A stretch of 64,000 nucleotides of DNA from Gemmatimonadota bacterium (GCA_046725585.1 JBKOYV010000160.1:2742-66741); one strand, 5' to 3'; positions 2-61,513 are shown, counted from the stretch's first letter. Notes: generated by a model from the sequence alone, not told the origin. Translations and numbers: made by a program.

Positions 2-1342
2 TCGGCCGCCGAGCGAGCGGCGGACCGAACCAACCGACTCCGTCGCACGGCCGAAGCGCTCTCGGGCGCACTGACGCCAATCGCCGTTGCGCGCGTCATC
101 GTCTCGGAGGGTTTGCCGGCGCTCAGCGCCACCGCGAGCGAGGTGGCAGTCCTCACGGGCGATGGCATCGCGCTGGATCTCATGGCGGTGAGCGGGGTGC
201 CGGCCGAGGTCGCCGACGCGTGGCGCCGGTTCCCGGTGACGAGTCGCGTGCCGCTGGCGGACGCGGTGCGCACGACCGAGCCGGTTCTGCTCGACTCGCC
301 GGACGAAATCGCGCGTCGCTATTCGGACCTGGCGCCGGTCCTCGAGCGCGTGAACGTCCGCGCGATGATCGTGACGCCGATGATCGTCGATGGGAGGCCA
401 CTCGGCTCGCTGAGCTTCAGCTTCAGCGGGCCCCGAACGTTCGACGACAGTGATGTCACGTTCACCCGCGCGCTCGGGCAACAGTGCGCGCAGGCGCTCG
501 AGCGGGCGCGACTTTTCGCGGCCGAGCAATCCGCGAGGGCTGACGCCGAGGCGGCGAACCGCGCCAAGACGGAGTTTCTGGCGATGATGTCCCACGAGCT
601 CCGGACGCCACTCAACGCCATTGCCGGCTATGCCGAGCTGATGGAGCTCGGCATCAGCGGTCCGGTGAGCGACATGCAGCGGGAGCAGCTCGGCCGCATT
701 CGGCGGAGCCAGCGCCATCTCCTGGGGATCATCGAGGACCTGCTGGACCTCTCGCGGCTCGAGCACGGGATGCCGGCGGACATCGAGCTGGGTCCGGTGC
801 CGGTCCACGACACGTTAGGCAACCTCGAGCCACTGATCGCGCCGCAGCTCAAGGCGCGGAACCTGACCTACATCTATAACCCCGCCGAGGGTGGCCTCAT
901 CGCGTACGGGAACCGGGCGCGCATCGAGCAGATTGTGCTCAACCTGCTGTCGAACGCCATCAAGTACACGGCGCCCGGTGGGCGCGTGGGACTTTCCAGC
1001 AGCCTCCACGCCGGGCGAGTAGAGATTCGCGTCAGCGACACCGGCCACGGGATTCCGCGCGAGAAGCTCGATTCGATCTTCGAGCCGTTCACCCGACTGG
1101 AGATGGACCTCACGCGGACGACGGAGGGTACCGGGCTTGGTCTCGCCATCAGCCGCCACCTTGCGCGGGCGATGATGGGCGACCTCAGCGCCCGCAGCGA
1201 GGTGGGGCGGGGATCGATCTTCACGCTCACGCTGCCCGTAAACGCCCCGGTGATCGCCGACCAGCCGCCGGCGGTCACGCCCGCGGCGTCCATGGTGGCC
1301 GTGCCTCGCGACGCCATCCCGCTCCACCGAGTCCGGATGTAG
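2..1342 (+). CDS. GAF-domain sensor histidine kinase, probably 5'-truncated by the window edge
   Basis: ORF 113..1342. The frame stays open back to nt 2, and the upstream residues (..ALSGALTPIAVARVIVSEG..) read like the start of the GAF fold. H-box MSHELRTPLNAI; HATPase boxes NLLSNAIKYT, DTGHGI, GTGLGLAI. Confidence 0.85.
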   Translation, partial: SAAERAADRTNRLRRTAEALSGALTPIAVARVIVSEGLPALSATASEVAVLTGDGIALDLMAVSGVPAEVADAWRRFPVTSRVPLADAVRTTEPVLLDSPDEIARRYSDLAPVLERVNVRAMIVTPMIVDGRPLGSLSFSFSGPRTFDDSDVTFTRALGQQCAQALERARLFAAEQSARADAEAANRAKTEFLAMMSHELRTPLNAIAGYAELMELGISGPVSDMQREQLGRIRRSQRHLLGIIEDLLDLSRLEHGMPADIELGPVPVHDTLGNLEPLIAPQLKARNLTYIYNPAEGGLIAYGNRARIEQIVLNLLSNAIKYTAPGGRVGLSSSLHAGRVEIRVSDTGHGIPREKLDSIFEPFTRLEMDLTRTTEGTGLGLAISRHLARAMMGDLSARSEVGRGSIFTLTLPVNAPVIADQPPAVTPAASMVAVPRDAIPLHRVRM

Positions 1343-1508
1343 GTCGGCGCGCGCGGGCGGTTCCGACTGCAGCCCCGGTTCGGCTCCACAGTTTTCTGAC
1401 AGAGCAGCCCTCGGCGCCGATGAGGCTCCGACGCCAGTCGCGCTATACATTGACAGGTGTCCCGCCGTCGCCGCGTGGGCGGGGCGACGACTTCAACCAT
1501 TTCGGTCC

Positions 1509-3233
1509 GTGCTGGCAGGGATGCGCCGCTCGCGCGCGACCATCGCGGTAGTGGTGTGCACGTTCACCGCCGCGTCGGTCGCCGCCTATCAGGTCTACAA
1601 CGCCGTGTGCGCGCAGGAGTCGGCCGCGCAGCGCGCGTTGTTATCGCACGCGCGGTTTGCGGCGTGGACGTTCACGCGCGAGGCCAACGCGGAGCTCGAG
1701 CGCGCCGCGCGGCGTGTTCTCGCGCCCACGGTGGCGCTTGCGGCGGAGCGCGGCGCCGCCTCGGCGCCGTCAGTGCTCGTGGCGGAGGGCATCCGAGCTG
1801 CCCGCCGCTGTGCGTGCGTGGCGGTGCCGGATGTTCGGTTCACGTTCGCGGTCGATCTGTCGCGCGGCGACGTCGTCGTCGGAGCGGTGGGTGACGAAAT
1901 GCCCGAGACCCCGAGCGGCGACATCGAACAGAGCGTCATTCGGACGGTTCGTGACGGTATCGCCGCCGGGGCGGTGACGGGCGACCCGATCATCACTCGG
2001 ATGCCGAGCGACGGCACGATCGCGATTGCCTACATGCTCGCCGGACAGACGGGCGTGCACCGGGGCAACAAGCCGCACAGGGCCTATGGCTACGCCTTCG
2101 ATGTGGGATCTGCGGGGCGTGCGGTGTTCCCCGCGGTTCTGGCATCGCGTGCGCTCCTTCCGCCCATGGGGCCGGCGCCAGTACCCGTGGACTCTACACT
2201 CACGCTCTCGGTGACCGGGCCGGATGAGCGCATCGTCTATCGCTCGGCGGCGACGCGCGGGCTCCGCCCGGCGGCGACGTTAGGCATGACCGGCGCCTTC
2301 GACGGGTTCGCCGTGCGGGTGGCGATGCGTCCCGCGTTCGCGTCCCGCGTGGCCGTAGGCAACTGGACGTGGAACCGGTCGCAGTTCGTGCTCGGGTTCA
2401 TCACGCTGAGTGCCGGGCTCGTGATCGTGTCACTGCTGCAACTGCACCGCGAGCGGCAGCTCGCGCGCGTAAAGAGCGAGCTGGTGTCGGGCGTGTCGCA
2501 CGAGCTTCGGACGCCGCTGGCGCAGATTCGGATGTTCGCCGAGATGCTGCGGCTCGGCTGGGTGCGCAGCGACGACGAGCGACAGCGGTCGGTCGCCATC
2601 ATCGACCAGGAGGCACGGCGGCTGGCGCATCTCGTCGAGAACATTTTGCAGTTCTCGAGAGCCGAGCGATCGGCGACGCGTGTGTCACTCGAGCCGCTGG
2701 AGCTGGCGGCGCTGGTGGACGAGGTGGTGGAGAGCTTCGCGCCGCTGGCGGGCTCGCGCGGCGTGACCGTCCGCACGACGCACTCCGGTCATGCCGTGGC
2801 GCTCGCGGACCGTGACGCGCTACGGCAGGTCCTGCTCAACCTCCTGGACAATGCGGTGAAGTATGGCCCCGCGGGCCAGACGGTCACGGCGGGAACGCGC
2901 GTGCTCGGGGACGGGCGTGTGCAGCTCTGGGTGGATGATCAGGGGACCGGGATCCCGGCGCGCGACAAGGCACGCATCTGGGAGCCGTTCCGCCGACTCG
3001 ACCGGGCGGTGGAGGCCGGAATCTCGGGCAACGGCATTGGACTCGCTGTCGTGCGCGAGCTGGCGGCCGCGCAGGCCGGGACGGTGACGGTGCACGACGC
3101 GGCGGGTGGAGGCGCGAGCTTCGTGGTGACGCTGCAGGCGGCGACGCAGGTGTCGCTGGCCCACTCGGAGGCCAGGCCTAACGCGTCCGAGGCGTTCGAC
3201 GCGGCGCCCCACCGCGAGCACTCGCTGCCATGA
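1509..3233 (+). CDS. membrane sensor histidine kinase
   Basis: 574-aa ORF with a TM segment FVLGFITLSAGLVIVSLLQL, H-box VSHELRTPLAQI, and ATPase boxes LLDNAVKYG, DQGTGIP, GNGIGLAVV. The stop overlaps the next start (ATGA). Confidence 0.85.
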   Translation: MLAGMRRSRATIAVVVCTFTAASVAAYQVYNAVCAQESAAQRALLSHARFAAWTFTREANAELERAARRVLAPTVALAAERGAASAPSVLVAEGIRAARRCACVAVPDVRFTFAVDLSRGDVVVGAVGDEMPETPSGDIEQSVIRTVRDGIAAGAVTGDPIITRMPSDGTIAIAYMLAGQTGVHRGNKPHRAYGYAFDVGSAGRAVFPAVLASRALLPPMGPAPVPVDSTLTLSVTGPDERIVYRSAATRGLRPAATLGMTGAFDGFAVRVAMRPAFASRVAVGNWTWNRSQFVLGFITLSAGLVIVSLLQLHRERQLARVKSELVSGVSHELRTPLAQIRMFAEMLRLGWVRSDDERQRSVAIIDQEARRLAHLVENILQFSRAERSATRVSLEPLELAALVDEVVESFAPLAGSRGVTVRTTHSGHAVALADRDALRQVLLNLLDNAVKYGPAGQTVTAGTRVLGDGRVQLWVDDQGTGIPARDKARIWEPFRRLDRAVEAGISGNGIGLAVVRELAAAQAGTVTVHDAAGGGASFVVTLQAATQVSLAHSEARPNASEAFDAAPHREHSLP

Positions 3234-4003: not shown

Positions 4004-4192
4004 TCGTCAGGCATCCAGTCCCGCGTTTGGGACATGTCCCATCCCGGGGCTGGGATTTCGTGCGGATGCCGGCGAGTCTTCCCGATTCATAACTCGCGAC
4101 AGCTCTAGGCGTTAGGCAGCGACGCCGCGGTGGCATTGGGCTGGCCTAGGGTTTCGGTTCGCGGTTGTCGCGGCCGCGCGTCCGTTGCGCGC

Positions 4193-4229: not shown

Positions 4230-6650
4230 ATGCTCCGGTACGCGCTCCGAACACTCGCCAAGAATCCGGCGTGGACGCTCGCCGCCGTTGCGTGTCTCGC
4301 GATCGGCATTGGCGCAAACACGACCGTGTACACGGCCATGCGGGCGATTGCGATCGAGCCGGTCCCCACGCCCAACAGCGACCGGCTCGTCATGATGTCG
4401 GAGGTGAAGCCACGGGATCCGGACGACCCCGATTTCGATCAGCTCGCGCCGGCCAATCTCGTCGATTGGATGCAGCAGACGCGCACGCTCGAGCATATTG
4501 CGGCGTTCTCGTGGTGGGACGTCAACATCACGGGCATCAACGACCCCGAGCGCGTCACGGGGTTTCGCGTGACGCCCGAGTTCTTCCGCACGCTCGACGA
4601 GCGTCCCGTGCTCGGGCGTGCGTTCACGGAGGAGGAAGGACACACCGGCAACACCGATCGCGTCATTCTCAGTCATCCGCTGTGGATGCGGCGGTTCGGC
4701 GGTGATCCTGGCGTGGTTGGTCGGACGGTGCAGCTCAACGGAGCGCCGCACACGATCGTCGGTGTAATGGGCGAGGACTTCATCTTCCCGCCGGGCGCCG
4801 AGCTGTGGAAGGCGTTCGCGCTCGAAGGTGCGGTTGCGGCCGACCGCGACGGACGCTGGTTGAACGCGATCGCGCGGTTGCGGCCCACGGCGACGCTCAC
4901 CGAGGCCCGCGCGGAGGCCCGCGCCATCGCTCGGCGGCTCGAGCTGCAGTATCCCGACATGAACGCGAAGTGGGGAATGAAGGTCGAGCCCGCACAGGTG
5001 TTCTACGGACGCCATCCGCGGCCGTACATGGTCGTGATGCTGGCGTCGGTGGCGCTGGTGCTGCTCATCGGGTGCGCGAACGTGGCGAACCTGCTGCTGG
5101 CACGCGCCACCACACGCGGGCGGGAGCTCGCCGTGCGGGTCGCGTTAGGCGCACGGCGCAGCGATCTCGTCCGGCAGATGCTCGCCGAGAGCATGGTGAT
5201 CGCGCTCATTGGCGGCGCGCTCGGCGCGTTGCTCGCGCTCTGGGGCGTGAGGCTCATGCGAAACACGCTGCCAGCGGACCTGGTGCGCTTCAACCCGGGG
5301 TGGACGCGCATAACGATCAACGGCCACGCGCTTCTGTTCACCATGGCCGTGTCGATCGCTACCGCGGTGGTGGTGGGTCTCGTTCCGGCGCTCATTGCGT
5401 CTCGCGCCGATCCGCAGCAGGCGCTGAAGGAAAGTGGGCGGACCGCGAGCGGCGCCGCCGGGCGTTACCGGCTCCGGAGCGCGCTGGTGGTTGGTGAGGT
5501 CGCGCTCGCGCTGATGCTGCTGTTCGGTACCGGCCTCATGGTGCGGAGCTTCATCGGGCTGATCGAAACGGACCAGGGGTACACCGTGGAGAAGGCGCTC
5601 ACCATGCAGCTCACGCTGCCGAGCGCGCGGTACAAGACCGACGGTGACCGCACGAGGTTCTATACGGCCCTCATCGATCGCGTGCGTGAGCTGCCGGGGG
5701 TTCGCGCGGCCAGCCTGATCAACGAGCTCCCGCCCTCATGGAATGACGTCTCTACACGCTTCATCCTGGAGGGCGAGCCAAAGCCACAACGTGGCGATCC
5801 GGCGCATCAGGAGCGCCAGCACCTGGTCTGGGATGGGTACTTCGCGGCCATGGACATTCCCGTTAGGCGCGGCCGGGACTTCGATCGCCATGATGACACG
5901 ACGAGTCCATCGGTGGCGATCGTCAGCGAGGCGTTCGCCCGGAAGTACTGGCCAGGTCAGGACGCGATCGGCAAGCGAATCTCGGGGCTCGCGGACTCGA
6001 TGCACCTGACGACGGTGGTTGGTGTCGTCGGGGATGTGCGGCACAACCCGAACACCGGACGGGCGCTGCTCGCCCCGGTGGTCTACTACCCGGCGACCCA
6101 GGGTCCGTGGGACACCATGACGCTCCTCGTGCGGACAGCCGGGAGCCCTCTCTCGATCACCGCGGATGTGCAGCGAGCGATTGGGTCGCTCGACCAGACG
6201 CTCGCTCCGGGCGAGGTCAAGACCCTCGAGCGGATGCTGTCGTCGTCGCTGTCGCCGCAGCGCATCACGGCCGGGATGCTGAGCGTGTTCGCGGGCATCG
6301 CGCTGCTGCTGGCGGTGATCGGCATCTACGGCGTCATGTCGTACACCGTAAACCAGCGCACGCACGAGATCGGAATCCGCATGGCGCTGGGCGCGCAGCG
6401 CGCGGACGTGGTGAGGCGTGTCCTGCGTCAGGGCGTGGCGTTGGCCGCGTTAGGTATCACGATCGGGGCGTTCGGGTCGTTCGCAATGACGCGAGGAATG
6501 GCGACCCTGCTTCACGAGGTGAGTCCAACGGATCCGCTCACGTTCGTGGCGGTGGCGGCGATGCTGGCGGCGGTGGCACTGCTGGGGAGCTGGCTCCCGG
6601 CGCAGCGCGCGGCGGCAGTCGATCCGGTTGTGGCGTTGAGGGACTCGTGA
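4230..6650 (+). CDS. ADOP-family (MacB-like periplasmic core + duplicated FtsX) permease
   Basis: ORF 4185..6650 trimmed to MLRYALRTLAKNP.. because the upstream 15 codons only translate the heptad array. Two FtsX modules (..GCANVANLLLARA.., ..RTHEIGIRMALGA..) and C-terminal ..PAQRAAAVDPVVALR. Confidence 0.85.
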   Translation: MLRYALRTLAKNPAWTLAAVACLAIGIGANTTVYTAMRAIAIEPVPTPNSDRLVMMSEVKPRDPDDPDFDQLAPANLVDWMQQTRTLEHIAAFSWWDVNITGINDPERVTGFRVTPEFFRTLDERPVLGRAFTEEEGHTGNTDRVILSHPLWMRRFGGDPGVVGRTVQLNGAPHTIVGVMGEDFIFPPGAELWKAFALEGAVAADRDGRWLNAIARLRPTATLTEARAEARAIARRLELQYPDMNAKWGMKVEPAQVFYGRHPRPYMVVMLASVALVLLIGCANVANLLLARATTRGRELAVRVALGARRSDLVRQMLAESMVIALIGGALGALLALWGVRLMRNTLPADLVRFNPGWTRITINGHALLFTMAVSIATAVVVGLVPALIASRADPQQALKESGRTASGAAGRYRLRSALVVGEVALALMLLFGTGLMVRSFIGLIETDQGYTVEKALTMQLTLPSARYKTDGDRTRFYTALIDRVRELPGVRAASLINELPPSWNDVSTRFILEGEPKPQRGDPAHQERQHLVWDGYFAAMDIPVRRGRDFDRHDDTTSPSVAIVSEAFARKYWPGQDAIGKRISGLADSMHLTTVVGVVGDVRHNPNTGRALLAPVVYYPATQGPWDTMTLLVRTAGSPLSITADVQRAIGSLDQTLAPGEVKTLERMLSSSLSPQRITAGMLSVFAGIALLLAVIGIYGVMSYTVNQRTHEIGIRMALGAQRADVVRRVLRQGVALAALGITIGAFGSFAMTRGMATLLHEVSPTDPLTFVAVAAMLAAVALLGSWLPAQRAAAVDPVVALRDS

Positions 6651-6656
6651 ACGGCC

Positions 6657-6720: not shown

Positions 6721-6722
6721 CT

Positions 6723-9122
6723 ATGATCTCTGAACTCCGATTGGCCAGTCGAACCCTCGCGCGCTCGCGTGGCTTCGCCATTGCGGCTGTCGGTGTCCTC
6801 GCGCTCGGCATCGGCGCGGCGGCAACCGTGTTCAGTGTGGTCGACGCGATACTCATCCGGCCGCTGTCGTATCCAGCGGCCGACCGGTTGGCGGTCATCT
6901 ACGCGACGCAGCCATCTCGCGGCGTGAGGCGTGGTGGCGCGTCGTTCCCCGACCTCAACGACTGGCGCGCCCAGCTTCCCGCGTTCGACGGCATCTTTGC
7001 GTACCTCGGCTCCAACGTGTCGCTCTCGGGAGCTGGCGAGGCCGAGCGCGTGCGAGCCGCGCTCGTGTCGGAGGACTTCTTCCACGTCATGGGCGCATCC
7101 CCCGCGTCAGGCCGATCGTTCCGCGGGGACGAGTGGAAGCCAGGTGGTCCGAAGGTCGCGATCCTGAGCGACGCGCTCTGGCGCAGGCGATTCGGCGCCG
7201 ACCAGCGTATTCTCGGACGCACGGCAATCGTCGACGGCGCGAGCTACGAGATCGTGGGCGTGATGCCGCGCGGTTTCGATTTCCCCGACGTCGAGGTGTG
7301 GGCGCCGTTCACCTTCCCGCCTGACGTCGCGACGCGGGAGGAGCGCGCGCTGGGAGCCGTGGCCCGGCTCCGAGACGGAGCGTCGATGCGCGACGCGCAG
7401 GTGCAGCTCGACGCGTTCAACACCCGATTGGAACGCGCCTTTCCGGCCACGAACGCCGGCTGGCAGGCGAGGATCGTCTCGCTGCACGATGACCTCGCCG
7501 CGGACTTCCGCTCAGGGTTGTATCTGCTCGCTGCGACGGTCGTGCTCGTTTTGCTGATCACCTGCGCGAACGTCGCGAATCTCATGCTCGCCCGCACGAA
7601 CGACCGGCGTCGAGAGCTGGCCGTGCGAATTGCGTTAGGCGGCAGCCGACGCCAGATCGCGCGCCAGACCCTGGCCGAGAGCGCGATCATCGCCACTGCG
7701 GGCGCCGGCCTCGGAATGCTCATCGCCCTCTGGGGCGCCCGACTCGTTCGGGTCGTGATTCCGGTCGAGATCCCGTCATGGATCCGTCTCAACGTGGGCC
7801 CGCGGACTGTTCTGTTTGCGTTAGGCGTTGCCGGGGCGCTGGCACTGGTCCTGAGCCTCGCGGCGAGCGCGCACATCACGGATCGATCGGTGGCTGACGC
7901 CCTTCGCGACGGTAGCCGCGCCGGGGCAGGCGCGCACCGCGCAAGATCGCGGCGCGCCCTCGTGGTCTCGGAGATCGCGGTGTCGCTCGCGCTGCTCGTC
8001 GGAGCGCTGCTCCTGACGCGCAGCTTTGCGCGGATGGCGCGTGCCGATCCCGGCTTCGACGCGACCGGCGTGCTGACGCTTCGCATCTCGCTGCCGGCCT
8101 CTCGCTACGCCAGCGACTCGTCCGTCGCGCGGTTCCACGAGGACGTCAACGCCGAACTGCGCGCGCTGCCGGGGGTCTCGTCGAGCGCGAGCGTCCTCAT
8201 GGCGCCGTTGAGCGACGAAAACATCTTCACGGCCATTACGATCGAGGGACAACCTGCGCCACCCGGGCAGGCGATGCACGCACTCCGACAAGCCATCATG
8301 CCGGACTACTTCTCGGTGCTGCGGATTCCACTGGTCGCTGGCCGCGCGTTCACGGCGGCCGATGGCGCGTCGGCACCACCGGTCGCGATCGTCACCGAGG
8401 CACTTGTGCGCGACCGATGGCCGAACGAGAGCGCCGTGGGTCGACGGTTCAAGCTCGGGCAGGCGGACTCGAAGGAAGCGTGGATCACGGTGGTGGGCAT
8501 AGCGCGCGACATCAAGCAGTTCGGCGTCCGCGAGGGCACCGCCGAAGGGATCTATCTGCCCATCGCCCAGTCGCCGCCGCGGACGGCAACGATCGTGCTT
8601 CGCGTAACGGGCGAGCCTACCGCGCTCGCGCCGTTGGCACGGAGGGTAATCCACGCACTGGACCCCGAGCTCGCGGTCTTCGGCGTGGAGTCATTGCCGC
8701 AGGTCCTCGCGCGATCGATCTGGCAACCGAGGCTGCAGGCGATCCTCGTGGGCACGTTCGCGGTCATTTCGCTGGTGCTCGCCGCCGTTGGCGTTTATAG
8801 CGTGGTCTCGTACGTGGTCGCCCAGCGGACGCGTGAGATCGGCGTACGCATGGCGCTCGGCGCTCAACAGTCGTCGGTGTTGCGGCTCGTCATCGCACAG
8901 GGCGTGCGCTTAACGCTCGCCGGCATCGCGCTCGGTCTCATCGGGTCGCTCGCGGCGGCGCGACTGCTCCAGGGACTGCTGTTCGGCGTTGGCGCGCGCG
9001 ACCCCGTGACGTTCGCGGGGGTTCCGATTCTCCTGTTTCTCGTCACGGTGCTCGCGTGTTACCTGCCCGCGCGTCGAGCGGCGAGCGTCGACCCGGCGGT
9101 TGCGCTCCGCGCCGATCAGTAA
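6723..9122 (+). CDS. ADOP-family permease
   Basis: 799 aa with the same architecture as 4230..6650 (MISELRLASRTLARSRGF.., ..TCANVANLMLART.., ..RTREIGVRMALGA.., ..PARRAASVDPAVALR). Confidence 0.9.
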   Translation: MISELRLASRTLARSRGFAIAAVGVLALGIGAAATVFSVVDAILIRPLSYPAADRLAVIYATQPSRGVRRGGASFPDLNDWRAQLPAFDGIFAYLGSNVSLSGAGEAERVRAALVSEDFFHVMGASPASGRSFRGDEWKPGGPKVAILSDALWRRRFGADQRILGRTAIVDGASYEIVGVMPRGFDFPDVEVWAPFTFPPDVATREERALGAVARLRDGASMRDAQVQLDAFNTRLERAFPATNAGWQARIVSLHDDLAADFRSGLYLLAATVVLVLLITCANVANLMLARTNDRRRELAVRIALGGSRRQIARQTLAESAIIATAGAGLGMLIALWGARLVRVVIPVEIPSWIRLNVGPRTVLFALGVAGALALVLSLAASAHITDRSVADALRDGSRAGAGAHRARSRRALVVSEIAVSLALLVGALLLTRSFARMARADPGFDATGVLTLRISLPASRYASDSSVARFHEDVNAELRALPGVSSSASVLMAPLSDENIFTAITIEGQPAPPGQAMHALRQAIMPDYFSVLRIPLVAGRAFTAADGASAPPVAIVTEALVRDRWPNESAVGRRFKLGQADSKEAWITVVGIARDIKQFGVREGTAEGIYLPIAQSPPRTATIVLRVTGEPTALAPLARRVIHALDPELAVFGVESLPQVLARSIWQPRLQAILVGTFAVISLVLAAVGVYSVVSYVVAQRTREIGVRMALGAQQSSVLRLVIAQGVRLTLAGIALGLIGSLAAARLLQGLLFGVGARDPVTFAGVPILLFLVTVLACYLPARRAASVDPAVALRADQ

Positions 9123-9175
9123 CGCTCATGCGAGCGCTTCGCTCCGACTCGTAACGTCTTTCCTCTTCGAACGAG

Positions 9176-14877: not shown

Positions 14878-15333
14878 CGCGGCCGGAACGGCGGTCAGCC
14901 AGCCAACGTGGATCACGCCCCAGAGCCCGATCAGGATCGCCTCGGCGGCGTCGTGGCGGAGCGACGTAGGCCGCGAGGCCTCTGACCATTCGACGACGCG
15001 TCGCGCGATGCCATCGGCGATGCGCTTCGCCTGCTCGCCCGAGCGCTGATCGCGGGCGAGCAGGAACATCGACCGCCACTCTTCCGCGCTGACGCGTCGT
15101 ACGCGCGACCCGTGTCGCTCGGACGCCGTGGCCCAGTGCTCGGCGAGCGGGCCGCCGCCCTCCAGCACGACATAGCTGGGATCGAAGGCCTCGTGCAGCA
15201 GCGCGGGTATCGCGCGCTTGAGACGCGAGGCCGCACCGAAGTTCCGCGAGCGGTACCAGATGAGGCGACCATCATCGCGGTAGACGGCAAGCCCGGTGCG
15301 GACGCCAACATCAACGGCGAGGAGCGACGGCAT
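14842..15333 (-). CDS. hypothetical protein, RNase H-fold (RuvC/YqgF-like) pattern
   Basis: 163 aa. LLAVDVGVRTGLAVY.., ..YVVLEGGG.., ..RHDAAEAILIGLWG.. resemble the acidic residues of RuvC-like nucleases. The 3' end overlaps the kinase convergently by 36 nt. Confidence 0.4.
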   Translation of the reverse strand: MPSLLAVDVGVRTGLAVYRDDGRLIWYRSRNFGAASRLKRAIPALLHEAFDPSYVVLEGGGPLAEHWATASERHGSRVRRVSAEEWRSMFLLARDQRSGEQAKRIADGIARRVVEWSEASRPTSLRHDAAEAILIGLWGVIHVGWLTAVPAALGLSVLPKRKP

Positions 15334-19093: not shown

Positions 19094-19121
19094 CGCCAAC
19101 GCCGGCTGGCTGCCTAACGCC

Positions 19122-31187: not shown

Positions 31188-31206
31188 GAGGGCGACCAGT
31201 GCGTGC

Positions 31207-52561: not shown

Positions 52562-52644
52562 GCGTGCCACTGCCCACTGCACACCGCCCGCTGCGTGTCC
52601 AAGGTCGACCGATCACTCGCCACTCCTACCCTGGTCGTCGTCTG

Positions 52645-53971: not shown

Positions 53972-54487
53972 TCAGCCGTCCCTCGATGCCACGGGAGATC
54001 CGAGCCGGATCGTTGGCGTCACGGACCGGTACTGCTTTGCCAGGAGACGCCGGAAGAGATGCGCTTTCCTGTGCTTGGCGCTCGACACGAAGACGATCAT
54101 CGTCGATCTTCCCGCCGGAGAAACGCGCAGGTGCACGACGCCGCCCGGCACCGTCAGCGTGCAGGCGTCAGCGGCGCGGGCGGACGGCGCGCACAGCCGG
54201 GAGGCGCACTCCTCGATCACCGTCAGCACCGCGCCCGAGTCCTGACCGATCACCCACCAGCGCGACCGCACGAGCCAGCCTCCAAGCAGCACGACGATGG
54301 CGCCCGCCAGCACGCCTAACGACAAGTGTCCGCCGCCCAGCACGGTGATCGCCGCGGCCACCAGGACGTACAGCGCCGTCAGGAAAAAGACCCAGTCACC
54401 ACGCACGACCGTCGGCTCGCGCCGCGCGAGGACGACCACCGACGCCGCAATCACCAGTGCGACGTACGCGGCCGCCCAGCCGAGCAC
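53972..54487 (-). CDS. hypothetical membrane protein
   Basis: 171 aa with three N-terminal TM helices. The stop is 1 nt before the hydrolase start. Confidence 0.55.
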   Translation of the reverse strand: MLGWAAAYVALVIAASVVVLARREPTVVRGDWVFFLTALYVLVAAAITVLGGGHLSLGVLAGAIVVLLGGWLVRSRWWVIGQDSGAVLTVIEECASRLCAPSARAADACTLTVPGGVVHLRVSPAGRSTMIVFVSSAKHRKAHLFRRLLAKQYRSVTPTIRLGSPVASRDG

Positions 54488-54500
54488 GTCCCGGCTCCGT

Positions 54501-56725: not shown

Positions 56726-56734
56726 CCGCCGCGC

Positions 56735-57844
56735 ATGACGAGCTCGCGGGTGCCGGAGCGGCGAACGATCCTCGTGACGGGCGGGACCGGTACGTTAGGC
56801 AGGGAGCTGGTCGCGCGTTTCGCCCGCGCAGATGACGCTTCGGTCGTCGTGCTCGCGCGCGGTACGGCGCATCCGCGTCCCGCCGTGCTGCCGCCAGGTG
56901 TCCGCGCGCTCGCGAGCGACGTGCGGCATGGTTCCACGCTCGGGCTCAGTGCGTCCGACCGCGCGATGCTTCGCGAGAGCGTCACCGACATTGTACACTG
57001 TGCGGCCGACACGACGTTCAACCGCCCGCTCGCCGACGCGCGCGCAACCAACGTGACGGGCACCGAGGCGGTCCTCGCGTTCGCAAAGGAGTGTCGGCGG
57101 CTCCGGCGGCTTGCCTGCTTCAGTACGGTGTACGTCGCGGGGCGCACGACGGGCTGCTTCACGGAGCACGATGTCGGCGGCGCCGACGGGTTCGTGAACA
57201 GCTACGAGCAGTCGAAGGCGGAAATGGAAGCGGTGGTGCGCGACGCGATGCGCCGGCTGCCGATCGCCATCTACCGCCTGAGCACGATCATTGGCGACGC
57301 TCGTACCGGCGAGGTCTCCGGGTTCAACGCGATCCATCACGCCCTGAGACTGCTGTATCAGGGCCTTGCCCCGATGGTGCCGGGTCGGGAAACCGGCCTC
57401 GTGGACCTCATCCCCGTGGATTTCGCTGCCGACGCGAGCCACCATCTCTTCGAGCGCGAGTTCACTGCCGGCGCGACGTATCATCTGTGTGCCGGCGCGG
57501 CGCATTCTGCCACGCTGGGAACCCTGCTGGATGCGACGATGGCGGCGTTCGAGCGATACCGCCCGGCGTGGCGCAAGCGCAGCATCGCCCGGCCCGCAAT
57601 CGTGGAGTTGGAGACGTACGAGCTGTTCGTACGCTCGGTGGAGGAGGCGGGGAATCAGGTGCTGCTGCAGGCGACGCGGGCCGTGCAGGCGTTCGCCTAC
57701 CAGCTCGCGTATCCCAAGGTGTTCGATGCTCGGTACGCCGAGGGCGTGCTCGCGCCGGCAGGCATCGCGGCGCCGAATGTGCTCGACTATTACGACGGGA
57801 TCGTGCGGTGGTGTATCGAAACAAACTGGGGGGCACAGGCATGA
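56735..57844 (+). CDS. NAD(P)-dependent SDR of the thioester-reductase / fatty-acyl reductase type
   Basis: ..ILVTGGTGTLGRELV.. Rossmann motif, catalytic ..NSYEQSK.. (YxxxK), about 370 aa as in stand-alone TR domains. Confidence 0.75.
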   Translation: MTSSRVPERRTILVTGGTGTLGRELVARFARADDASVVVLARGTAHPRPAVLPPGVRALASDVRHGSTLGLSASDRAMLRESVTDIVHCAADTTFNRPLADARATNVTGTEAVLAFAKECRRLRRLACFSTVYVAGRTTGCFTEHDVGGADGFVNSYEQSKAEMEAVVRDAMRRLPIAIYRLSTIIGDARTGEVSGFNAIHHALRLLYQGLAPMVPGRETGLVDLIPVDFAADASHHLFEREFTAGATYHLCAGAAHSATLGTLLDATMAAFERYRPAWRKRSIARPAIVELETYELFVRSVEEAGNQVLLQATRAVQAFAYQLAYPKVFDARYAEGVLAPAGIAAPNVLDYYDGIVRWCIETNWGAQA

Positions 57845-59034
57845 CGGGCTCGTCGCCGAAGGCGCTGCCGACCCCCGCTGAGCTCGAGCGGCAGCTCGCG
57901 CACTTCGTCAACGTCACGCTGCTGGGCGGAGGCAACGCGGTCGGGCGCGACACGCGCCTGTTCGAGGATGGGTACATGAACTCGCTCCGCATCCTCGATC
58001 TGATCGCGATGGTGGAGAAAACGTTAGGCGCGCGCATACCCGACCGCTCGGTTCGCCTCGCGAACTTCCGTACGATCGCCACCATCGTGCAGGTGTTTCA
58101 CCCGGACGCCGGCGTTGTCGCCGCCTCGGCCCCCGATCGGCTGTTCGAGCGCCGCGCTGACCGATCACGCTTTGCCTCGCCAGTCGAACTGCTTCGACAC
58201 CGGGGTGACGTCAGAGTCACCGGTGCCGGTCGCGTCGCCCTGGCTGGCCTCGCGCTCCAGGTCCTCGAGGCGGTCGATGACACCGTCGTGCGTTGGGCGG
58301 AATCCCTCGGCGCTTCCGATCACCGCTACCCGAGCCTGATCGACACGGCCATCCTCCGGCGTGCCGGGCAGACGCCATCCACGATGGTCATCCCGAGCGC
58401 GGATGTCATCCCGAGCGCTGATGACGAGGTTATGCTCGCCCCCGCCGTCTGCTACCACGCCTATCCCGAGTGGGCCGGCAAGGCCATCGGAGACACCCCC
58501 ACGGTCCTCACCGCGCGCGGCCACTGTTACCGCTACGAGGGCGGCCACCACGTCCCGCTGGAACGGCTGTGGGAGTTCACGATGCGCGAGATCATCGTGA
58601 TGGGAACACGCCAGCAGGTCGAAGACGTCCGGCAGTCACTCGTCAGGCAGGTCGCGACTCTCGTCGACACGCTGAAGCTGGACGCCTCGATCGAAACCGC
58701 CACCGACCCGTTCTTCACGGCCGGTGATGAGGGCCGCCGCCTCATGCAGCAGGCCGGCGCGCTCAAGTACGAGCTCCGCCTCGCCGTCGACGCGACGGGC
58801 CGCACGATAGCCGCCGCGTCGTTCAACCATCACCACGACTTCTTCGGCACGCGCTTCGGCATTCGCCTCGCCGACGACACCCCCGCGCACAGCGGATGCG
58901 TCGCGTTCGGGCTCGAGCGGTGGATGCTTGCGCTGCTCGCGCAGCACGGTGTTGAGCGAGACGCGTGGCCTAACGCGGTGCGAGCGTGGCTCGATGAGGC
59001 GCTCCACCGACCGGCTTGGGGATCCGGTGCGTGA
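57841..59034 (+). CDS. carrier-protein domain fused to a class-II aaRS-like (SerRS-type) amino acid:[carrier protein] ligase
   Basis: N-terminal PP-binding-like ..FEDGYMNSLRILDLIAMVEKTLG... C-terminal motif-2-like ..GHCYRYEGGHHVPLERLWEFTMREIIVMG.., motif-3-like ..HSGCVAFGLERWMLALL.. and Cys residues (..APAVCYHAY..) as in Zn-dependent atypical SerRS homologues. No tRNA-binding arm. ATGA overlap with the SDR. Confidence 0.7.
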   Translation: MTGSSPKALPTPAELERQLAHFVNVTLLGGGNAVGRDTRLFEDGYMNSLRILDLIAMVEKTLGARIPDRSVRLANFRTIATIVQVFHPDAGVVAASAPDRLFERRADRSRFASPVELLRHRGDVRVTGAGRVALAGLALQVLEAVDDTVVRWAESLGASDHRYPSLIDTAILRRAGQTPSTMVIPSADVIPSADDEVMLAPAVCYHAYPEWAGKAIGDTPTVLTARGHCYRYEGGHHVPLERLWEFTMREIIVMGTRQQVEDVRQSLVRQVATLVDTLKLDASIETATDPFFTAGDEGRRLMQQAGALKYELRLAVDATGRTIAAASFNHHHDFFGTRFGIRLADDTPAHSGCVAFGLERWMLALLAQHGVERDAWPNAVRAWLDEALHRPAWGSGA

Positions 59035-59918: not shown

Positions 59919-59921
59919 CAA

Positions 59922-60653
59922 GTGATCTACGAATCCCACCTGCGCGCCACCGAGGAAAACGCGTGGCCCCTCGACTCCTCCATCGCGTGGGATGCGATCG
60001 ACCTCGACGTCGCGCGCAGCGAGCGCGATCTACACCAGGCACTGCACGACGCGGCGCTCATCGAAGGGTACCTGCCGGTGTACGCCGCGCGGCTCATGCA
60101 GCTCCTCTGGGACGACGTCGATGCGACCGCCGTGCTCAGCATGGAGCTCTACGAGGGACTCAAGCACTTCACCGCGCTCGCCCGGTACCTCGACCGCGTG
60201 GGCTATCAACGCGAGGAGGTCTCCGAGGCGACGCTCGTGGCCGCGCGAGCGCGCGCGCTCGCGATCGCGTACGACAGGGCCGACCTCATCGCGCACCTCA
60301 CGAACTTCATGTGCTCGGAGCTCTTCGCCGCGTACTTCTTCCTGCGTATTGCCCGCCGCACTAACGAGCCGGTGCTGCGAGAGCTGTTAGGCTACATGTC
60401 GCGCGATGAGTTCCGTCACAGCGCAAGCGCCGGCGACGTCCTCAAGAAGCGCATCGATCGCGATCCCGGGATCGCTGCCCAGGTCCTCGCGGCCGCCGAG
60501 CGGTTTCGCCACTATGGGAGCGACGTCGTTCAGGTCCCCGTCGCCGAGGAGAACGACTTCGAGGCGATCATGGCCATGAACCGAAAGGTCCGCCTGCTGT
60601 GCGGCCTCGCGCCGACCGAGCATCTCAAGGAGTCCGTCCCCGGTGGAGATTAG
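59922..60653 (+). CDS. ferritin-like / acyl-ACP-desaturase-like putative diiron protein
   Basis: 243 aa, all-helical. ..MELYEGLKHF.. and ..SRDEFRHS.. (DExRH-type ligand motif). Confidence 0.55.
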   Translation: MIYESHLRATEENAWPLDSSIAWDAIDLDVARSERDLHQALHDAALIEGYLPVYAARLMQLLWDDVDATAVLSMELYEGLKHFTALARYLDRVGYQREEVSEATLVAARARALAIAYDRADLIAHLTNFMCSELFAAYFFLRIARRTNEPVLRELLGYMSRDEFRHSASAGDVLKKRIDRDPGIAAQVLAAAERFRHYGSDVVQVPVAEENDFEAIMAMNRKVRLLCGLAPTEHLKESVPGGD

Positions 60654-61497
60654 CGAAAACGATCTCTGGATCCTCAGCTACTACCGCGAGTCGGAGCTCG
60701 CGGGAAGTCTCGTCATGGGCCGCCTCGCGCGGGAAACGGACGACGACGACCTGCGTGTGCACCTCACCGAGCATTGCGCGGAAGAGGCCCACCACGCGTG
60801 GCTGTGGACGGAGACGATCCTCAAGGTGGGCGGTACCCCGAAGCGCGTGGCCGAGACGTACCAGACGCGCTACTACGCCGAGATCGGGATGCCGGCGAGC
60901 CTGCTCGAGATTCTTACACTCACACAAGTTTTCGAGCGGCGCGTAATACGGCATTTCCGCGCCCACCTCAAGTGGCCTGACGTGCACCCCGCGGTGGCCG
61001 AAACGCTCCGCCGCATGATCGAGGACGAGGTCGGCCACATCAGCTGGGTAAAGGACCGCCTCGATCGATACGCGGCCGAGAAGGGGGAAGCGATCGTGGC
61101 CGAAACGATGCGCCGCTTCACCGAAGTGGATGAACGCGTCTACGAAGCGGCGATGCGCTACCGGGACAACGCACGCGAGCTGCTCGACCCCGCGCTCCGT
61201 GGGAACGGACAGGCGCGCCCCCAGCCGACGTCGATCACGGCACCGTCGGCCTCACGCGCGACCACGAGCAATGCCGAGCTCCGCCACCTCGTGGCGAAGT
61301 CGCTCGGCGTGAACGACGACATCGTGCTCGATACGTCGTCGCTCCGCGACCTGGGTGTCAACTCGCTCGACCTCGTGGTGCTCGTGATGTCGATCGAGGA
61401 GCATTTCCACGTCGAGTTCGAGGCGAGCGACCTGGAGCGACTGCGGACGTTCGCCGACCTGGCGCGCCGCGTGACCGAGCTGACCGCGGTTCGTTAG
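60643..61497 (+). CDS. diiron four-helix-bundle (ferritin-like) oxygenase domain fused to a C-terminal acyl-carrier domain
   Basis: E..ExxH x2 ligand pattern (..YRESELAG.., ..CAEEAHH.., ..VFERRV.., ..IEDEVGH..). A linker is followed by ..LRDLGVNSLDLVVLVMSIEEHF.. (PP-binding). The stop TAG lies inside a CGTTAGGC copy. Confidence 0.7.
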   Translation: MEISENDLWILSYYRESELAGSLVMGRLARETDDDDLRVHLTEHCAEEAHHAWLWTETILKVGGTPKRVAETYQTRYYAEIGMPASLLEILTLTQVFERRVIRHFRAHLKWPDVHPAVAETLRRMIEDEVGHISWVKDRLDRYAAEKGEAIVAETMRRFTEVDERVYEAAMRYRDNARELLDPALRGNGQARPQPTSITAPSASRATTSNAELRHLVAKSLGVNDDIVLDTSSLRDLGVNSLDLVVLVMSIEEHFHVEFEASDLERLRTFADLARRVTELTAVR

Positions 61498-61513
61498 GCA
61501 GGCCTGACGGCGG

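Follow-up and report, generated by a model that had tools for sequence, protein, structure and literature searches.

An evenly spaced octamer in coding and intergenic DNA of a Gemmatimonadaceae bacterium

The octamer and its copies

The window considered here is the whole 64-kb stretch of DNA that was analysed from a Gemmatimonadaceae soil bacterium. Its genes include the paralogues ADOP1 to ADOP5 and genes for a histidine kinase, a sigma-54 activator, a tricorn protease, a TonB-dependent receptor and an M1 peptidase. Written across both strands at approximately one copy per 1.2 kb is the 8-base word CGTTAGGC, with 52 full copies in the window (28 on the plus strand and 24 on the minus strand; Table 1). 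A further eight copies of GTTAGGC lack the leading C, and the window's 82 TTAG tetramers include 61 that fall within CGTTAG. A first-pass annotation had listed 35 copies by the position of the G of GTTAGGC rather than the start of the octamer. All of them exist, although the copy placed at 47815 lies at 47806–47813 and the one at 61494 was off by one (octamer 61492–61499). Literature searches found no earlier description of the octamer.

Table 1. Copies of CGTTAGGC and one-off variants in the window, with their coding context (L numbers denote contigs used for comparison)
Feature	Position	Strand	Context
octamer	813..820	+	ACG-TTA-GGC Leu-Gly, + histidine kinase gene
octamer	2278..2285	+	Leu-Gly frame, + gene 1509-3233
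octamer	3176..3183	-	CCT-AAC Pro-Asn, antisense to + gene
octamer	4110..4117	+	intergenic, upstream of ADOP1
octamer	5143..5150	+	ADOP1, Leu-Gly; Ala-Leu-Gly site common to ADOP2
octamer	5861..5868	+	ADOP1, GTT-AGG Val-Arg (rare frame)
octamer	7633..7640	+	ADOP2, Leu-Gly
octamer	7819..7826	+	ADOP2, Leu-Gly
octamer	9594..9601	+	ADOP3, Leu-Gly
octamer	10542..10549	-	ADOP3, antisense, CTA-ACG Leu-Thr
octamer	12548..12555	-	sigma-54 activator gene, antisense, Pro-Asn
octamer	13417..13424	+	sigma-54 activator gene, Leu-Gly
one-off variant TGTTAGGC	13682..13689	+	Leu-Gly frame
octamer	13850..13857	+	Leu-Gly, + kinase gene 13573-14877
octamer	14042..14049	+	Leu-Gly, + kinase gene 13573-14877
octamer	14872..14879	-	TAA stop (14875-14877) of + gene; also Leu-Gly in overlapping - ORF 14842-15333
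octamer	16813..16820	+	Leu-Gly, + gene 16542-18752
one-off variant GGTTAGGC	17755..17762	+	Leu-Gly frame
octamer	18331..18338	-	antisense, Leu-Thr, + gene 16542-18752
octamer	18821..18828	-	intergenic, convergent genes either side
octamer	19112..19119	-	intergenic, convergent genes either side
octamer	21066..21073	+	Leu-Thr, antisense to - gene
octamer	21834..21841	-	Leu-Gly, - gene 21561-22478
one-off variant TGTTAGGC	22164..22171	-	Leu-Gly frame, - gene
octamer	23821..23828	+	Pro-Asn, antisense to - gene
octamer	26124..26131	+	Pro-Asn, - ORF 25516-26466 (ambiguous call; Leu-Gly if + ORF 25883-26320); kept in L002
octamer	28400..28407	+	ADOP4, Leu-Gly; Ala-Leu-Gly-Ile site as in ADOP5
octamer	30120..30127	-	ADOP4, antisense, Pro-Asn
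octamer	30347..30354	-	ADOP4, antisense, Leu-Thr
octamer	31205..31212	-	TAG stop (31209-31207) of - gene 31207-32484
octamer	31693..31700	-	Leu-Gly, - kinase gene
one-off variant GGTTAGGC	33455..33462	+	Pro-Asn frame, antisense to - gene
one-off variant GGTTAGGC	34019..34026	+	intergenic
octamer	34170..34177	+	intergenic
octamer	35016..35023	+	ADOP5, antisense, Pro-Asn; kept in L002 and L082
octamer	35734..35741	-	ADOP5, Leu-Gly; kept in L002
octamer	36667..36674	-	ADOP5, Leu-Gly; synonymous CTC-GGG in L002
one-off variant TGTTAGGC	38450..38457	-	Leu-Gly, tricorn protease gene
octamer	39157..39164	+	tricorn protease, antisense, Pro-Asn; in L003, L082, L002, L001; substitute site 27 bp off in L081
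octamer	39718..39725	+	tricorn protease, antisense, Pro-Asn; outgroups Asp or Ser, not Asn
octamer	40525..40532	+	tricorn protease, antisense, Pro-Asn; CCG-AAC in L002 and L001
octamer	41955..41962	-	antisense, Leu-Thr, + gene 41165-42625
octamer	43432..43439	+	- DUF4037 gene, antisense, Pro-Asn
one-off variant TGTTAGGC	44325..44332	-	Leu-Gly, - gene
octamer	45971..45978	-	Leu-Gly near start of - AlkZ-like gene; common to L003 only
octamer	47806..47813	-	TonB-dependent receptor gene, antisense, Leu-Thr; copy 20 bp off instead in L002
octamer	48293..48300	-	TonB-dependent receptor gene, antisense, Pro-Asn
octamer	48862..48869	+	Leu-Gly; kept in 5/5 syntenic genomes
octamer	49594..49601	-	DUF4249 gene, antisense, Pro-Asn
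octamer	50787..50794	-	M1 peptidase gene, antisense, Leu-Thr; kept in 5/5 genomes
octamer	51816..51823	+	M1 peptidase gene, Leu-Gly
octamer	52556..52563	+	TAG stop (52559-52561) of + gene 50618-52561
octamer	54314..54321	-	Leu-Gly, - gene 53972-54487
octamer	56793..56800	+	+ reductase gene, Leu-Gly
octamer	58022..58029	+	Leu-Gly, + gene 57808-59034
octamer	58968..58975	-	antisense, Pro-Asn, + gene 57808-59034
one-off variant TGTTAGGC	60385..60392	+	Leu-Gly frame
octamer	61492..61499	+	TAG stop (61495-61497) of + gene 60643-61497
octamer	61690..61697	-	GTT-AGG Val-Arg frame, - gene 61514-61786
octamer	62816..62823	-	Leu-Gly, - gene 62579-63406

When synonymous codons were shuffled within each gene, approximately 1.7 coding copies were expected compared to the 45 observed, both in the sense orientation (25 observed, 0.56 shuffled) and antisense (20 observed, 1.11 shuffled). 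Two motif-rich regions together carry 67 copies in 81 kb, while motif-free Gemmatimonadaceae relatives carry none in 344 kb. Across related genomes the word is all-or-none, being either present at 0.5–1.1 per kb or absent, and two gene trees indicate that the motif-rich lineages are not monophyletic.

Reading frames and codon usage

Frames were assigned from codon-model gene calls, which match the database gene calls on syntenic contigs. These calls reproduced the earlier table of frames and extended it to minus-strand genes. The octamer is read as xCG-TTA-GGC (Leu-Gly) in 23 copies, xxG-CCT-AAC-G (Pro-Asn) in 13, xGC-CTA-ACG (Leu-Thr) in seven and xxC-GTT-AGG-C (Val-Arg) in two; four copies lie between genes. 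A different genomic region, represented by seven other contigs, shows the same spectrum. Since two of the six frames, CGT-TAG-GC and GCC-TAA-CG, hold a stop codon, just four are open within genes and all four are occupied. The fixed frames of the first-pass description are largely forced by these stops. Copies that double as stop codons, also described previously, number four and are simply the remaining two frames, used at gene ends only, where permitted.

Occupancy of encodable peptide contexts is 62% for Pro-Asn, 33% for Leu-Gly, 25% for Leu-Thr and 5% for Val-Arg, and runs roughly inverse to codon cost. The proposal that the motif arises wherever the protein sequence makes it cheap does not fully account for the three Pro-Asn sites of the tricorn protease. 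Outgroups lack Asn at all three, with Ser, Asp or Gln at two and the third falling in a variable linker, so that a change of amino acid probably contributed to some sites. The word is made and kept wherever the coding sequence tolerates it, stop codons included. Its creation is mostly by synonymous change to the otherwise avoided codons TTA, CCT and CTA, and amino-acid replacement at variable positions probably made some copies.

TTA supplies 41 of 1889 Leu codons in the window, 29 of which (71% of TTA) belong to TTA-GGC. Outside the motif it is about as uncommon in the window (0.6% of Leu codons) as in relatives (0.48%). The motif-free relatives use TTA for 31 of 6435 Leu codons, and none of their 497 Leu-Gly pairs is written TTA-GGC. 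Nor is TTA-GGC preferred for Leu-Gly irrespective of its flanks, since xCG precedes 23 of 29 TTA-GGC compared to 34 of 143 other Leu-Gly encodings (P = 3e-8), and the base before TTA-GGC is always G. CTA-ACG and CCT-AAC likewise depend on the flanking bases that finish the octamer. One conserved Ala-Leu-Gly site is encoded by GCG-TTA-GGC in ADOP1 and ADOP2 and by GCA-, TGC- or GCG-CTC-GGC in ADOP3, 4 and 5, in agreement with the earlier claim that these paralogues encode the site with or without the motif. Where paralogues and orthologues have the identical peptide context, they use CTC-GGC instead, and the octamer-encoded dipeptides are not enriched relative to the reversed dipeptides.

Because the rare codons appear only if the flanks complete the octamer, the word is specified at the level of DNA. 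The intergenic copies, the antisense copies and the use of four dipeptides rule out a protein-level cause, and the suggestion of selection or drive at the DNA level is upheld. The force holding CGTTAGGC acts on DNA and not on proteins or mRNAs.

Spacing, specificity and turnover

The coefficient of variation (CV) of the gaps in the window is 0.58; random placement gives 0.98, and a null limited to encodable peptide contexts gives 1.00. The longest gap measures 2539 bp, where the random null gives a mean largest gap of 5445 bp. Even spacing was replicated in contigs L026, L121, L087, L081 and L082. Evenness is a property of both orientations pooled, and neither alone is evener than random thinning of their union. 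Strand counts are balanced (28:24 in the window, 9:10 in L121, 7:6 in L087 and 8:7 in L002), orientation order along the window is random (26 runs, 26.8 expected), and the sole trend in orientation relative to genes tracks codon cost. The core GTTAGG has almost no variants, while at the outer positions, 1 and 8, one-off variants are enriched approximately 10-fold; pooled, all one-mismatch variants are enriched just ~1.9-fold. Neither an extended flanking consensus nor inverted-pair terminators were seen among the copies in the window.

With phase-matched octamers as the control, 9 of 11 and 8 of 16 octamer sites were kept in orthologue comparisons versus 3.1 and 2.2 expected, and rare codons were kept at 11 of 11 positions inside the motif versus 5 of 19 outside. 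Some sites were found in a single lineage only. Three lineages independently gained CGC-CTA-ACG at a conserved Arg-Leu-Thr-Ser site of the tricorn protease, and in two cases lost sites were substituted by new copies 20–27 bp away. The orthologue comparison shows that the octamer is maintained and created at the DNA level. There is interference between copies: where none is nearby a new one is favoured, but beside an existing copy it adds little, which gives rise to even spacing with a ceiling of ~2.5 kb and to local site turnover. CGTTAGGC is a lineage-specific genomic "watermark" in double-stranded DNA, present in either orientation about once per 1.2 kb, and drive or selection almost certainly acts on it as a word at the DNA level.

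Candidate forces acting on the word

An uptake-type drive is tentatively favoured as the likeliest of the candidate mechanisms. A surface or periplasmic competence receptor would bind the octamer on duplex DNA, and kilobase-sized fragments from relatives carrying a copy would be taken up preferentially and then recombined into the chromosome. Word-containing alleles would spread through molecular drive, with selection on codons and proteins working against this spread, and lineages losing the receptor or competence would lose the word. The closest analogues of CGTTAGGC are the DNA uptake sequences of Haemophilus (Pasteurellaceae USS) and Neisseria (Neisseriaceae DUS), followed by cyanobacterial HIP1. 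Its density matches that of USS, of which H. influenzae has 1,471 (PMC2817400), and its frames, like those reported for USS and DUS, are used in line with codon cost; both count in favour of uptake. USS are evenly spaced too, according to Karlin et al. as cited in PMC1939737. Against uptake, the ~1.9-fold enrichment of one-mismatch variants contrasts with ~10-fold for uptake sequences (Bakkali), the AT-rich flanking segments typical of USS and the inverted-pair terminators of Neisseria have no counterpart here, and the spread is patchy and non-monophyletic among close relatives where USS and DUS are family-wide. No report that literature searches returned ties Gemmatimonadetes to DNA uptake sequences, and among the matches listed none describes natural competence in Gemmatimonas. 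It also counts against uptake that a chromosomal protein with a selected binding site would explain all features measured just as well.

Other candidate forces would fit parts of the same evidence. That most sense copies encode Leu-Gly, several at conserved Ala-Leu-Gly positions of FtsX-type permeases, would suit a codon pair, a programmed pause at rare TTA or a recurrent peptide motif. Such a translation- or protein-level signal is the least credible alternative: antisense copies nearly equal sense copies and encode unrelated dipeptides, intergenic and stop-codon copies exist, the CG required before TTA-GGC is part of another codon, and neither the CTC-GGC contexts nor the reversed dipeptides fit. 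It was rejected on strand symmetry and dependence on flanking bases. Scarcely more plausible is a polar signal for recombination or segregation, akin to Chi or KOPS/AIMS and read by RecBCD/AddAB or FtsK on a single strand. The word is, like Chi and KOPS, a non-palindromic over-represented octamer; however, the balanced strand counts in every contig and the random orientation order disfavour this reading, as does evenness confined to the pooled orientations, and the one gene-relative trend reflects codon cost only. Dcm/Vsr very short patch (VSP) repair enriches palindromic methylation sites, far more weakly than is seen here. A VSP-like correction or nicking-repair enzyme that turns near-cognates into CGTTAGGC, so that the word piles up neutrally and with no function of its own, is nonetheless consistent with convergent gains at identical encodable sites, with the near absence of core one-off variants (as expected if these are converted) and with the all-or-none trait, which fits gain or loss of one enzyme. 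Site-autonomous repair or mutation of this kind is improbable, since it predicts the random spacing of the encodable-context null (CV 1.00), against a CV of 0.58 and no gap above 2.54 kb in the window. In addition, only 25–62% of encodable contexts are occupied (Leu-Thr to Pro-Asn), the unoccupied ones being usually CTC, two changes off, and nearby replacement of a lost site points to a neighbourhood-level constraint.

Somewhat less likely than uptake, but well ahead of these, is a chromosomal recognition site under selection, of the kind proposed for HIP1 and read by a lineage-specific cytoplasmic protein. Candidate readers are a nucleoid-associated protein, a repair or loading factor, an orphan methyltransferase, or a nuclease reading the word as a mark of "self". 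The cell would need one copy per 1–2.5 kb in any orientation, and ordinary natural selection on chromosome function would maintain the copies. Even spacing with a steady gap ceiling, evenness independent of orientation, conservation above controls, local substitution of lost sites and sharp specificity with nearly no core variants all argue for this reading, for which Xu et al. may also be cited, and the patchy, all-or-none presence fits gain or loss of one protein. The window offers a single lead, however: one of its ORFs has a ParB/Noc-like match at chance level (E = 0.006). Chi and KOPS/AIMS, the octamers of known function, are polar, unlike CGTTAGGC, and a word claiming 71% of all TTA codons carries a high coding cost. 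Since no function has been established for HIP1 itself, a recognition site names a class without a mechanism. The patchy distribution of the word also recalls HIP1, which, according to Elhai 2015 (PMC4390886), occurs at low frequency in exceptional cyanobacteria.

Reading frames and codon cost of the octamer

The window (67.3% G+C) contains 52 perfect copies of the octamer CGTTAGGC (reverse complement GCCTAACG), 28 of them in plus and 24 in minus orientation. Eight further copies of GTTAGGC lack the leading C. Apart from these copies, this genome avoids the core, 61 of the 82 TTAG tetramers being found within CGTTAG. The source organism is an uncultured member of the Gemmatimonadaceae; its tricorn-protease homologue shares 86–93% identity with soil-metagenome proteins and 70–75% identity with proteins named Gemmatimonadaceae, Roseisolibacter or Gemmatimonas. 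All 35 copies listed in the first-pass annotation are present in the window, with two corrections of position: the copy placed at 47815 occupies 47806–47813, and the one placed at 61494 was off by one base.

For gene calling, a codon log-likelihood model was trained on the window's long ORFs. The resulting 53 genes cover 89% of the sequence and are backed by Pfam matches and by the collection's own calls on syntenic contigs. Coding sequence holds 87% of the octamer copies, in the frames presented in the table. The minus-strand genes, which the first-pass annotation had left aside, have the same frame pattern as the plus-strand genes. The frames CGT-TAG-GC and GCC-TAA-CG are absent inside genes because both contain a stop. 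Since these frames occur only where a gene needs to end, what had been described as fixed frames is the use of every usable frame. The earlier observation that the octamer doubles as a stop codon was confirmed for both TAG and TAA. The octamer at the TAA lies in the overlap of two converging ORFs, where it ends a plus-strand kinase gene and encodes Leu-Gly in a minus-strand ORF for which no Pfam or NCBIfam match was found.

Octamer classes in the window and coordinates of other features in the window and in relatives
Feature	Location	Codons or content	Copies or arrangement
Leu-Gly frame	window	xCG-TTA-GGC	23 copies of 52
Pro-Asn frame	window	xxG-CCT-AAC-G	13 copies of 52
Leu-Thr frame	window	xGC-CTA-ACG	7 copies of 52
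Val-Arg frame	window	xxC-GTT-AGG-C	2 copies of 52
Stop codon only	31205, 52556, 61492	TAG stop of a gene	3 copies
Intergenic	window	no codons	4 copies of 52
Stop codon and Leu-Gly	14872	TAA stop and Leu-Gly in converging ORF	tallied under Leu-Gly
Overlap of converging ORFs	14842–14879		36 bases
Minus-strand ORF of this overlap	14842–15333		
ADOP permease genes	4230–11575, 27693–30732, 34327–37361	five MacB/FtsX-type paralogues	three in tandem; two preceded by PadR-family regulators
S24 (LexA/UmuD-like) peptidase gene and overlapping gene	19125–20605	second gene weakly resembles ECF sigma factors	four-base overlap
Ambiguous gene call	25516–26466	316-aa minus-strand ORF, or plus-strand ORFs 25559–25879 and 25883–26320	
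PadR-ADOP pair	34.3–37.4 kb		also in L002
SusC/SusD-type transporter pair	L081 and L082, 13.6–18.2 kb		downstream of tricorn gene
Cluster of biosynthetic appearance	55098–61497	described in the text	
NmeDI_C gene	L082, 8354–9445	restriction endonuclease C-terminal domain	adjoins tricorn gene
Acidobacteriota repeats	L042 9478–9582, 12276–12324		
Acidobacteriota repeats	L049 2062–2098, 5702–5865		
Acidobacteriota repeats	L066 1849–1941		
Acidobacteriota repeats	L054 4404–4446		

When synonymous codons were shuffled within each gene, a procedure that retains the already inflated rare-codon counts of the window genes, 0.56 sense and 1.11 antisense copies were expected compared to 25 and 20 observed. 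TTA makes up 41 of the 1889 Leu codons in the window and 29 of these 41 are TTA-GGC (71% of all TTA); CCT-AAC encodes 18 of the 38 Pro-Asn pairs (47%) and CTA-ACG encodes 8 of the 109 Leu-Thr pairs. Motif-free Gemmatimonadaceae loci were compared over 238 kb of coding sequence; there, TTA represents 0.48% of Leu codons, with TTA-GGC at 0 of 497 Leu-Gly pairs, CCT-AAC at 1 of 156 Pro-Asn pairs and CTA-ACG at 0 of 445 Leu-Thr pairs. As had been anticipated for such GC-rich DNA, TTA is rare outside the octamer, where the rare-codon use of the window equals that of its relatives.

The rare codons are present only where adjacent codons complete the octamer. TTA-GGC is preceded by xCG in 23 of 29 cases versus 34 of 143 for other Leu-Gly encodings (P = 3e-8), the preceding base always being G, and CTA-ACG is preceded by xGC in 7 of 8 cases versus 10 of 101 for other Leu-Thr encodings (P = 5e-6). 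CCT-AAC has G on both sides in 13 of 18 cases versus 6 of 20 for other Pro-Asn encodings. The occupancy of peptide contexts able to encode the octamer tracks codon cost, from 13 of 21 for Pro-Asn (one rare codon) through 23 of 69 for Leu-Gly and 7 of 28 for Leu-Thr to 2 of 39 for Val-Arg (two rare codons). The same relation was described for uptake sequences by Findlay and Redfield (PMC2817400). In the window, Leu-Gly, Pro-Asn and Leu-Thr occur no more often than the same dipeptides in reverse order. Compared with relatives, the window has a 1.4-fold excess of Leu-Gly and of Val-Arg and no excess of Pro-Asn or Leu-Thr. The ADOP paralogues, offered in the first-pass annotation as an example of one segment encoded with or without the octamer, bear this out: at one Ala-Leu-Gly site, two copies have GCG-TTA-GGC and three have xxx-CTC-GGC, and a second Ala-Leu-Gly site is split differently among the copies. 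A protein-level or codon-pair cause was rejected given the dependence on flanking bases and the antisense copies. In agreement with the earlier interpretation, the octamer is a feature of the DNA itself, and a force independent of the encoded proteins creates, maintains and spaces it.

Distribution and turnover among relatives

A comparison of 80 genome loci around tricorn-protease orthologues found the octamer to be abundant only in L001, L002 and L003 (87–93% protein identity, 0.56–0.70 per kb) and in the more distant L026 (69% protein identity, 15 copies in 16.7 kb). The remaining Gemmatimonadaceae and Acidobacteriota loci among the 80 contain 0–2 copies each. Two contigs from the clade of the window, L081 and L082, contain 0.62 and 0.68 copies per kb. 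A metagenome scan seeded with the UxuA gene that adjoins the tricorn gene of L026 recovered six more motif-rich contigs with 0.5–1.1 copies per kb, which is also the range across the 11 motif-rich contigs other than the window. The same scan recovered 35 other Gemmatimonadaceae-like contigs, of which 34 had no octamer and one, L099, had a single copy. For the window and L026 together there are 67 copies in 81 kb compared to none in 344 kb of motif-free relatives. Thus, the presence of the octamer among genomes is effectively binary. Lineage-specific insertions in the syntenic contigs, all short, have a normal octamer density.

Zero-order over-representation is uninformative since words that derive from codons, GATCGA for example, are enriched to a similar ratio throughout these GC-rich genomes; it was replaced by a differential 8-mer scan with 1.26 Mb of related DNA as the reference. 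The CGTTAGGC family was the sole strong, dispersed, lineage-specific word identified. Tricorn and UxuA gene trees were assessed by quartet bootstraps, with support of 100% for ((window, L015),(L026, L056)), 98% for ((window, L015),(L026, L012)) in the tricorn tree and 97% for ((L026, L085),(L121, L102)) in the UxuA tree. These quartets group motif-rich lineages with motif-free ones and not with each other; therefore, the octamer trait is not monophyletic in the two gene trees. Repeated loss, repeated gain and gene transfer are each possible origins of this pattern.

Gain and loss could be followed in orthologues, where conservation above controls, local turnover and convergent gain were all observed. 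The window is syntenic with L003 (85% nucleotide identity) and L002 (77%). Octamer sites shared with L003 number 9 of 11 and those shared with L002 number 8 of 16, when 3.1 and 2.2, respectively, were expected from octamers at the same codon phase (P = 4e-4 and 5e-4). TTA, CTA and CCT codons are kept relative to L003 in 11 of 11 cases inside the octamer and 5 of 19 outside (P = 8e-5), and relative to L002 in 8 of 15 inside and 2 of 20 outside. Across five syntenic genomes, two sites are common to all, three occur in the window and L003 only, and seven belong to a single lineage. Two of these seven lie 20–27 bp from a site that is absent there and present in relatives (39184 versus 39157 in L081 and 47786 versus 47806 in L002); by a rough hand estimate, approximately 0.2 such nearby replacements would be expected by chance.

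An invariant Arg-Leu-Thr-Ser segment of the tricorn protease is encoded with CGC-CTA-ACG in L081, L001 and L026, and with CTC or CTG in all others. Judged from the codon alignment, CTA, a Leu codon of the rarest kind, was gained convergently at this position. None of the tricorn octamer sites in the window is common to L026. At all three tricorn Pro-Asn sites the outgroups lack Asn; at two of these sites they have Ser, Asp or Gln, and the third site falls in a variable, indel-rich linker. With such sites at positions that are not Asn in the outgroups, octamer gain has probably not been confined to synonymous changes and would have proceeded through residue replacement at some sites.

Spacing and candidate roles of the octamer

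The copies are evenly spaced. The coefficient of variation (CV) of the gaps between the 52 copies is 0.58 compared to 0.98 for random placement (P < 1e-4) and 1.00 for a null limited to the 157 peptide contexts able to encode the octamer. The largest gap is 2539 bp versus a random-null mean of 5445 bp. Gap CVs are 0.43 in L026 (P ~1e-3) and 0.57–0.65 in L121, L087, L081 and L082 (P ~0.03), with largest gaps of 2.2–2.4 kb in L026, L121 and L087, 2.7 kb in L081 and 3.5 kb in L082. Orientation along the window is random (26 runs versus 26.8 expected) and copies in a single orientation are no more even than a random thinning of the both-strand union. From these two results, the regularity is a property of the word in duplex DNA, whichever way it points.

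A sequence logo of 15 bases on each side revealed no consensus beyond the eight bases. Given this result and the in-frame copies in unrelated genes without indels, an extended element of the REP/MITE type was rejected. An Rfam gathering scan of the window produced no RNA family match. One-mismatch variants are 1.85-fold enriched overall, and approximately 10-fold enriched at positions 1 and 8 with no enrichment in the core GTTAGG, all from small counts; Bakkali (2007) described an approximately 10-fold enrichment of one-mismatch forms for uptake sequences. Chi, KOPS/AIMS and the octamer are alike in being over-represented, non-palindromic words of 8 bases; however, the former are strongly strand-biased with respect to replication. 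A polar signal of the Chi/KOPS type was rejected since the octamer has, at the scale of the contigs, neither strand bias nor order in its orientations.

Sequence-specific 'self' words are represented by two proteobacterial families, USS and DUS, and by the cyanobacterial HIP1 whose function is unexplained. A word of this kind would be expected to leave just such a pattern of frames, rare codons and stop codons in coding DNA, and USS, DUS and HIP1 provide precedent. The USS of Pasteurellaceae (e.g. AAGTGCGGT of Haemophilus influenzae) and the octamer are both short non-palindromic words that occur about once per 1.2 kb, use both strands equally and are evenly spaced, a property of USS for which PMC1939737 cites Karlin et al. 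Both reside mostly inside genes, in few frames set by stop avoidance and codon cost (PMC2817400), occasionally shape amino acids at variable positions, and have a strict core with looser outer positions (PMC2817400; PMC1939737). In contrast to USS, the octamer has an unrelated sequence, belongs to Gemmatimonadota and not Proteobacteria, has no AT-rich flanking segments, has one-off variants that are barely enriched and is patchy among close relatives.

The DUS of Neisseriaceae (GCCGTCTGAA and its dialects), which is read by the minor pilin ComP, resembles the octamer as a hyper-abundant, strand-symmetric 'watermark' of a lineage's own DNA, present about once per kb. Both are kept in conserved genome regions, and in both cases lineages differ in having the word or in which word they have. 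DUS often forms inverted pairs in terminators with approximately 35% in ORFs, whereas the octamer is predominantly coding and is not paired in this way; the dialects of DUS vary the sequence of a single word, whereas for the octamer a lineage has the same word or none. HIP1 (GCGATCGC) is also an over-represented octamer (15- to 300-fold, compared to about 20-fold above base composition for CGTTAGGC) that occurs in coding and non-coding DNA in several frames with non-preferred codons, and the sites and codons of both are conserved above controls (PMC5861425). Its frequency is low in exceptional cyanobacteria, as mentioned in PMC4390886. HIP1 differs in being a palindrome with methyltransferase sites, whereas CGTTAGGC is asymmetric and not its own reverse complement, and in having a periodicity of 10–90 kb as opposed to a regularity at 1–2.5 kb within 64 kb.

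With respect to function, it is quite possible, if short of probable, that a sequence-specific competence system would read the octamer as a mark of self DNA, as in the uptake-sequence mechanism of Pasteurellaceae and Neisseriaceae. By analogy, hyper-abundance, strand equality and the frames used are all features of uptake sequences, as are the even spacing, the strict core with looser outer positions and the location at variable residues; loss of competence would account for the motif-free relatives. In a second, slightly less likely reading, the octamer would be a site that a chromosomal protein binds or modifies and that selection retains, as has been suggested for HIP1 (PMC5861425); the patchy distribution and sharp specificity fit this reading somewhat better. 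The data do not separate the two, and the uptake reading is favored because uptake sequences are the only unskewed, asymmetric, approximately one-per-kb words of known function. A site-independent process, such as a mutational or very-short-patch repair bias, is argued against by the even spacing and by the local replacement of lost sites. The analysis covered 64 kb of this genome and pieces of 4–23 kb from relatives. No competence genes were found in the window, and the search for a candidate reader protein there returned only a chance-level ParB/Noc-like match (E = 0.006).

If the uptake-sequence mechanism applied, CGTTAGGC might be a third, independently evolved uptake-sequence family and the first outside Proteobacteria, marking self DNA for competence in uncultured soil Gemmatimonadaceae; this proposal, also drawn by analogy, is somewhat less likely than not. 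The all-or-none, non-monophyletic distribution would then reflect repeated gain, transfer or loss of a receptor. A literature search found no description of the octamer in either orientation, the 20 matches listed being primers or unrelated sequences, and nothing relevant on uptake-like sequences or competence in Gemmatimonadetes/Gemmatimonadota. The interest lies in the word itself, a clean new instance of such words in a new phylum, one that is a major and poorly cultured component of soil. The testable prediction is either natural competence that favors self DNA or a novel system of chromosomal recognition. Close relatives with and without the octamer provide a natural experiment in which the contrast in gene content should point to the reading protein, a route that has not settled the function of HIP1. 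The octamer also quantifies a DNA-level force that overrides strong codon bias and is relevant to codon-usage models and gene finding, and as a near-binary lineage marker it is useful for the binning or classification of metagenomic contigs.

Other words and neighboring genes

No dialects of the octamer were found in other lineages. The candidate GTTGTACA in L010 and L013 was rejected as it arises at orthologous xTG-TAC-AAC sites from preferred codons, and ACGGAATG, CGACAAAC, AGTTTCAA and CAAACAGC were rejected as tandem or hairpin repeats. GCACGCAA occurs nine times in the whole 16-kb locus L011, in both orientations, compared to 0.35 expected from related DNA; it was rejected since it is mostly intergenic (5 of 9 copies outside called genes) and behaves unlike CGTTAGGC, and it may serve in regulation. 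Repeats in the Acidobacteriota loci comprise short hairpins (CGACAAAC..GTTTGTCG), ACGGAATG arrays with a period of approximately 12 bp and 7-bp tandem repeats, all unrelated to the octamer.

By base composition, the palindromes ATCGCGAT (22 strand-summed matches at 11 distinct sites) and GATCGCGATC (10 matches) are, together with TCGCGA-containing words, among the most over-represented 8- to 10-mers in the window. ATCGCGAT also heads the over-represented list in the Acidobacteriota locus L072. This excess could derive from codons (ATC-GCG-ATC) or reflect an independent effect on palindromes.

Downstream of the tricorn gene, the position of the SusC/SusD-type pair of L081 and L082 is taken in the window and L002 by a PadR-ADOP pair, a local gene replacement in otherwise conserved synteny with normal octamer density in both versions. 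The gene with an NmeDI_C domain is found beside the tricorn gene in L082 only and has no octamer copy in its 1.1 kb. The ParB/Noc-like match concerns N-terminal domains of that type and the minus-strand product of an ambiguous gene call. A set of genes resembling a small biosynthetic cluster codes for a phosphopantetheinyl transferase, a KAS III-like enzyme, a NAD_binding_4 thioester reductase, a methyltransferase and two proteins with carrier domains, one of them class II aminoacyl-tRNA-synthetase-like and the other a fusion with a ferritin/AurF-like di-iron protein.
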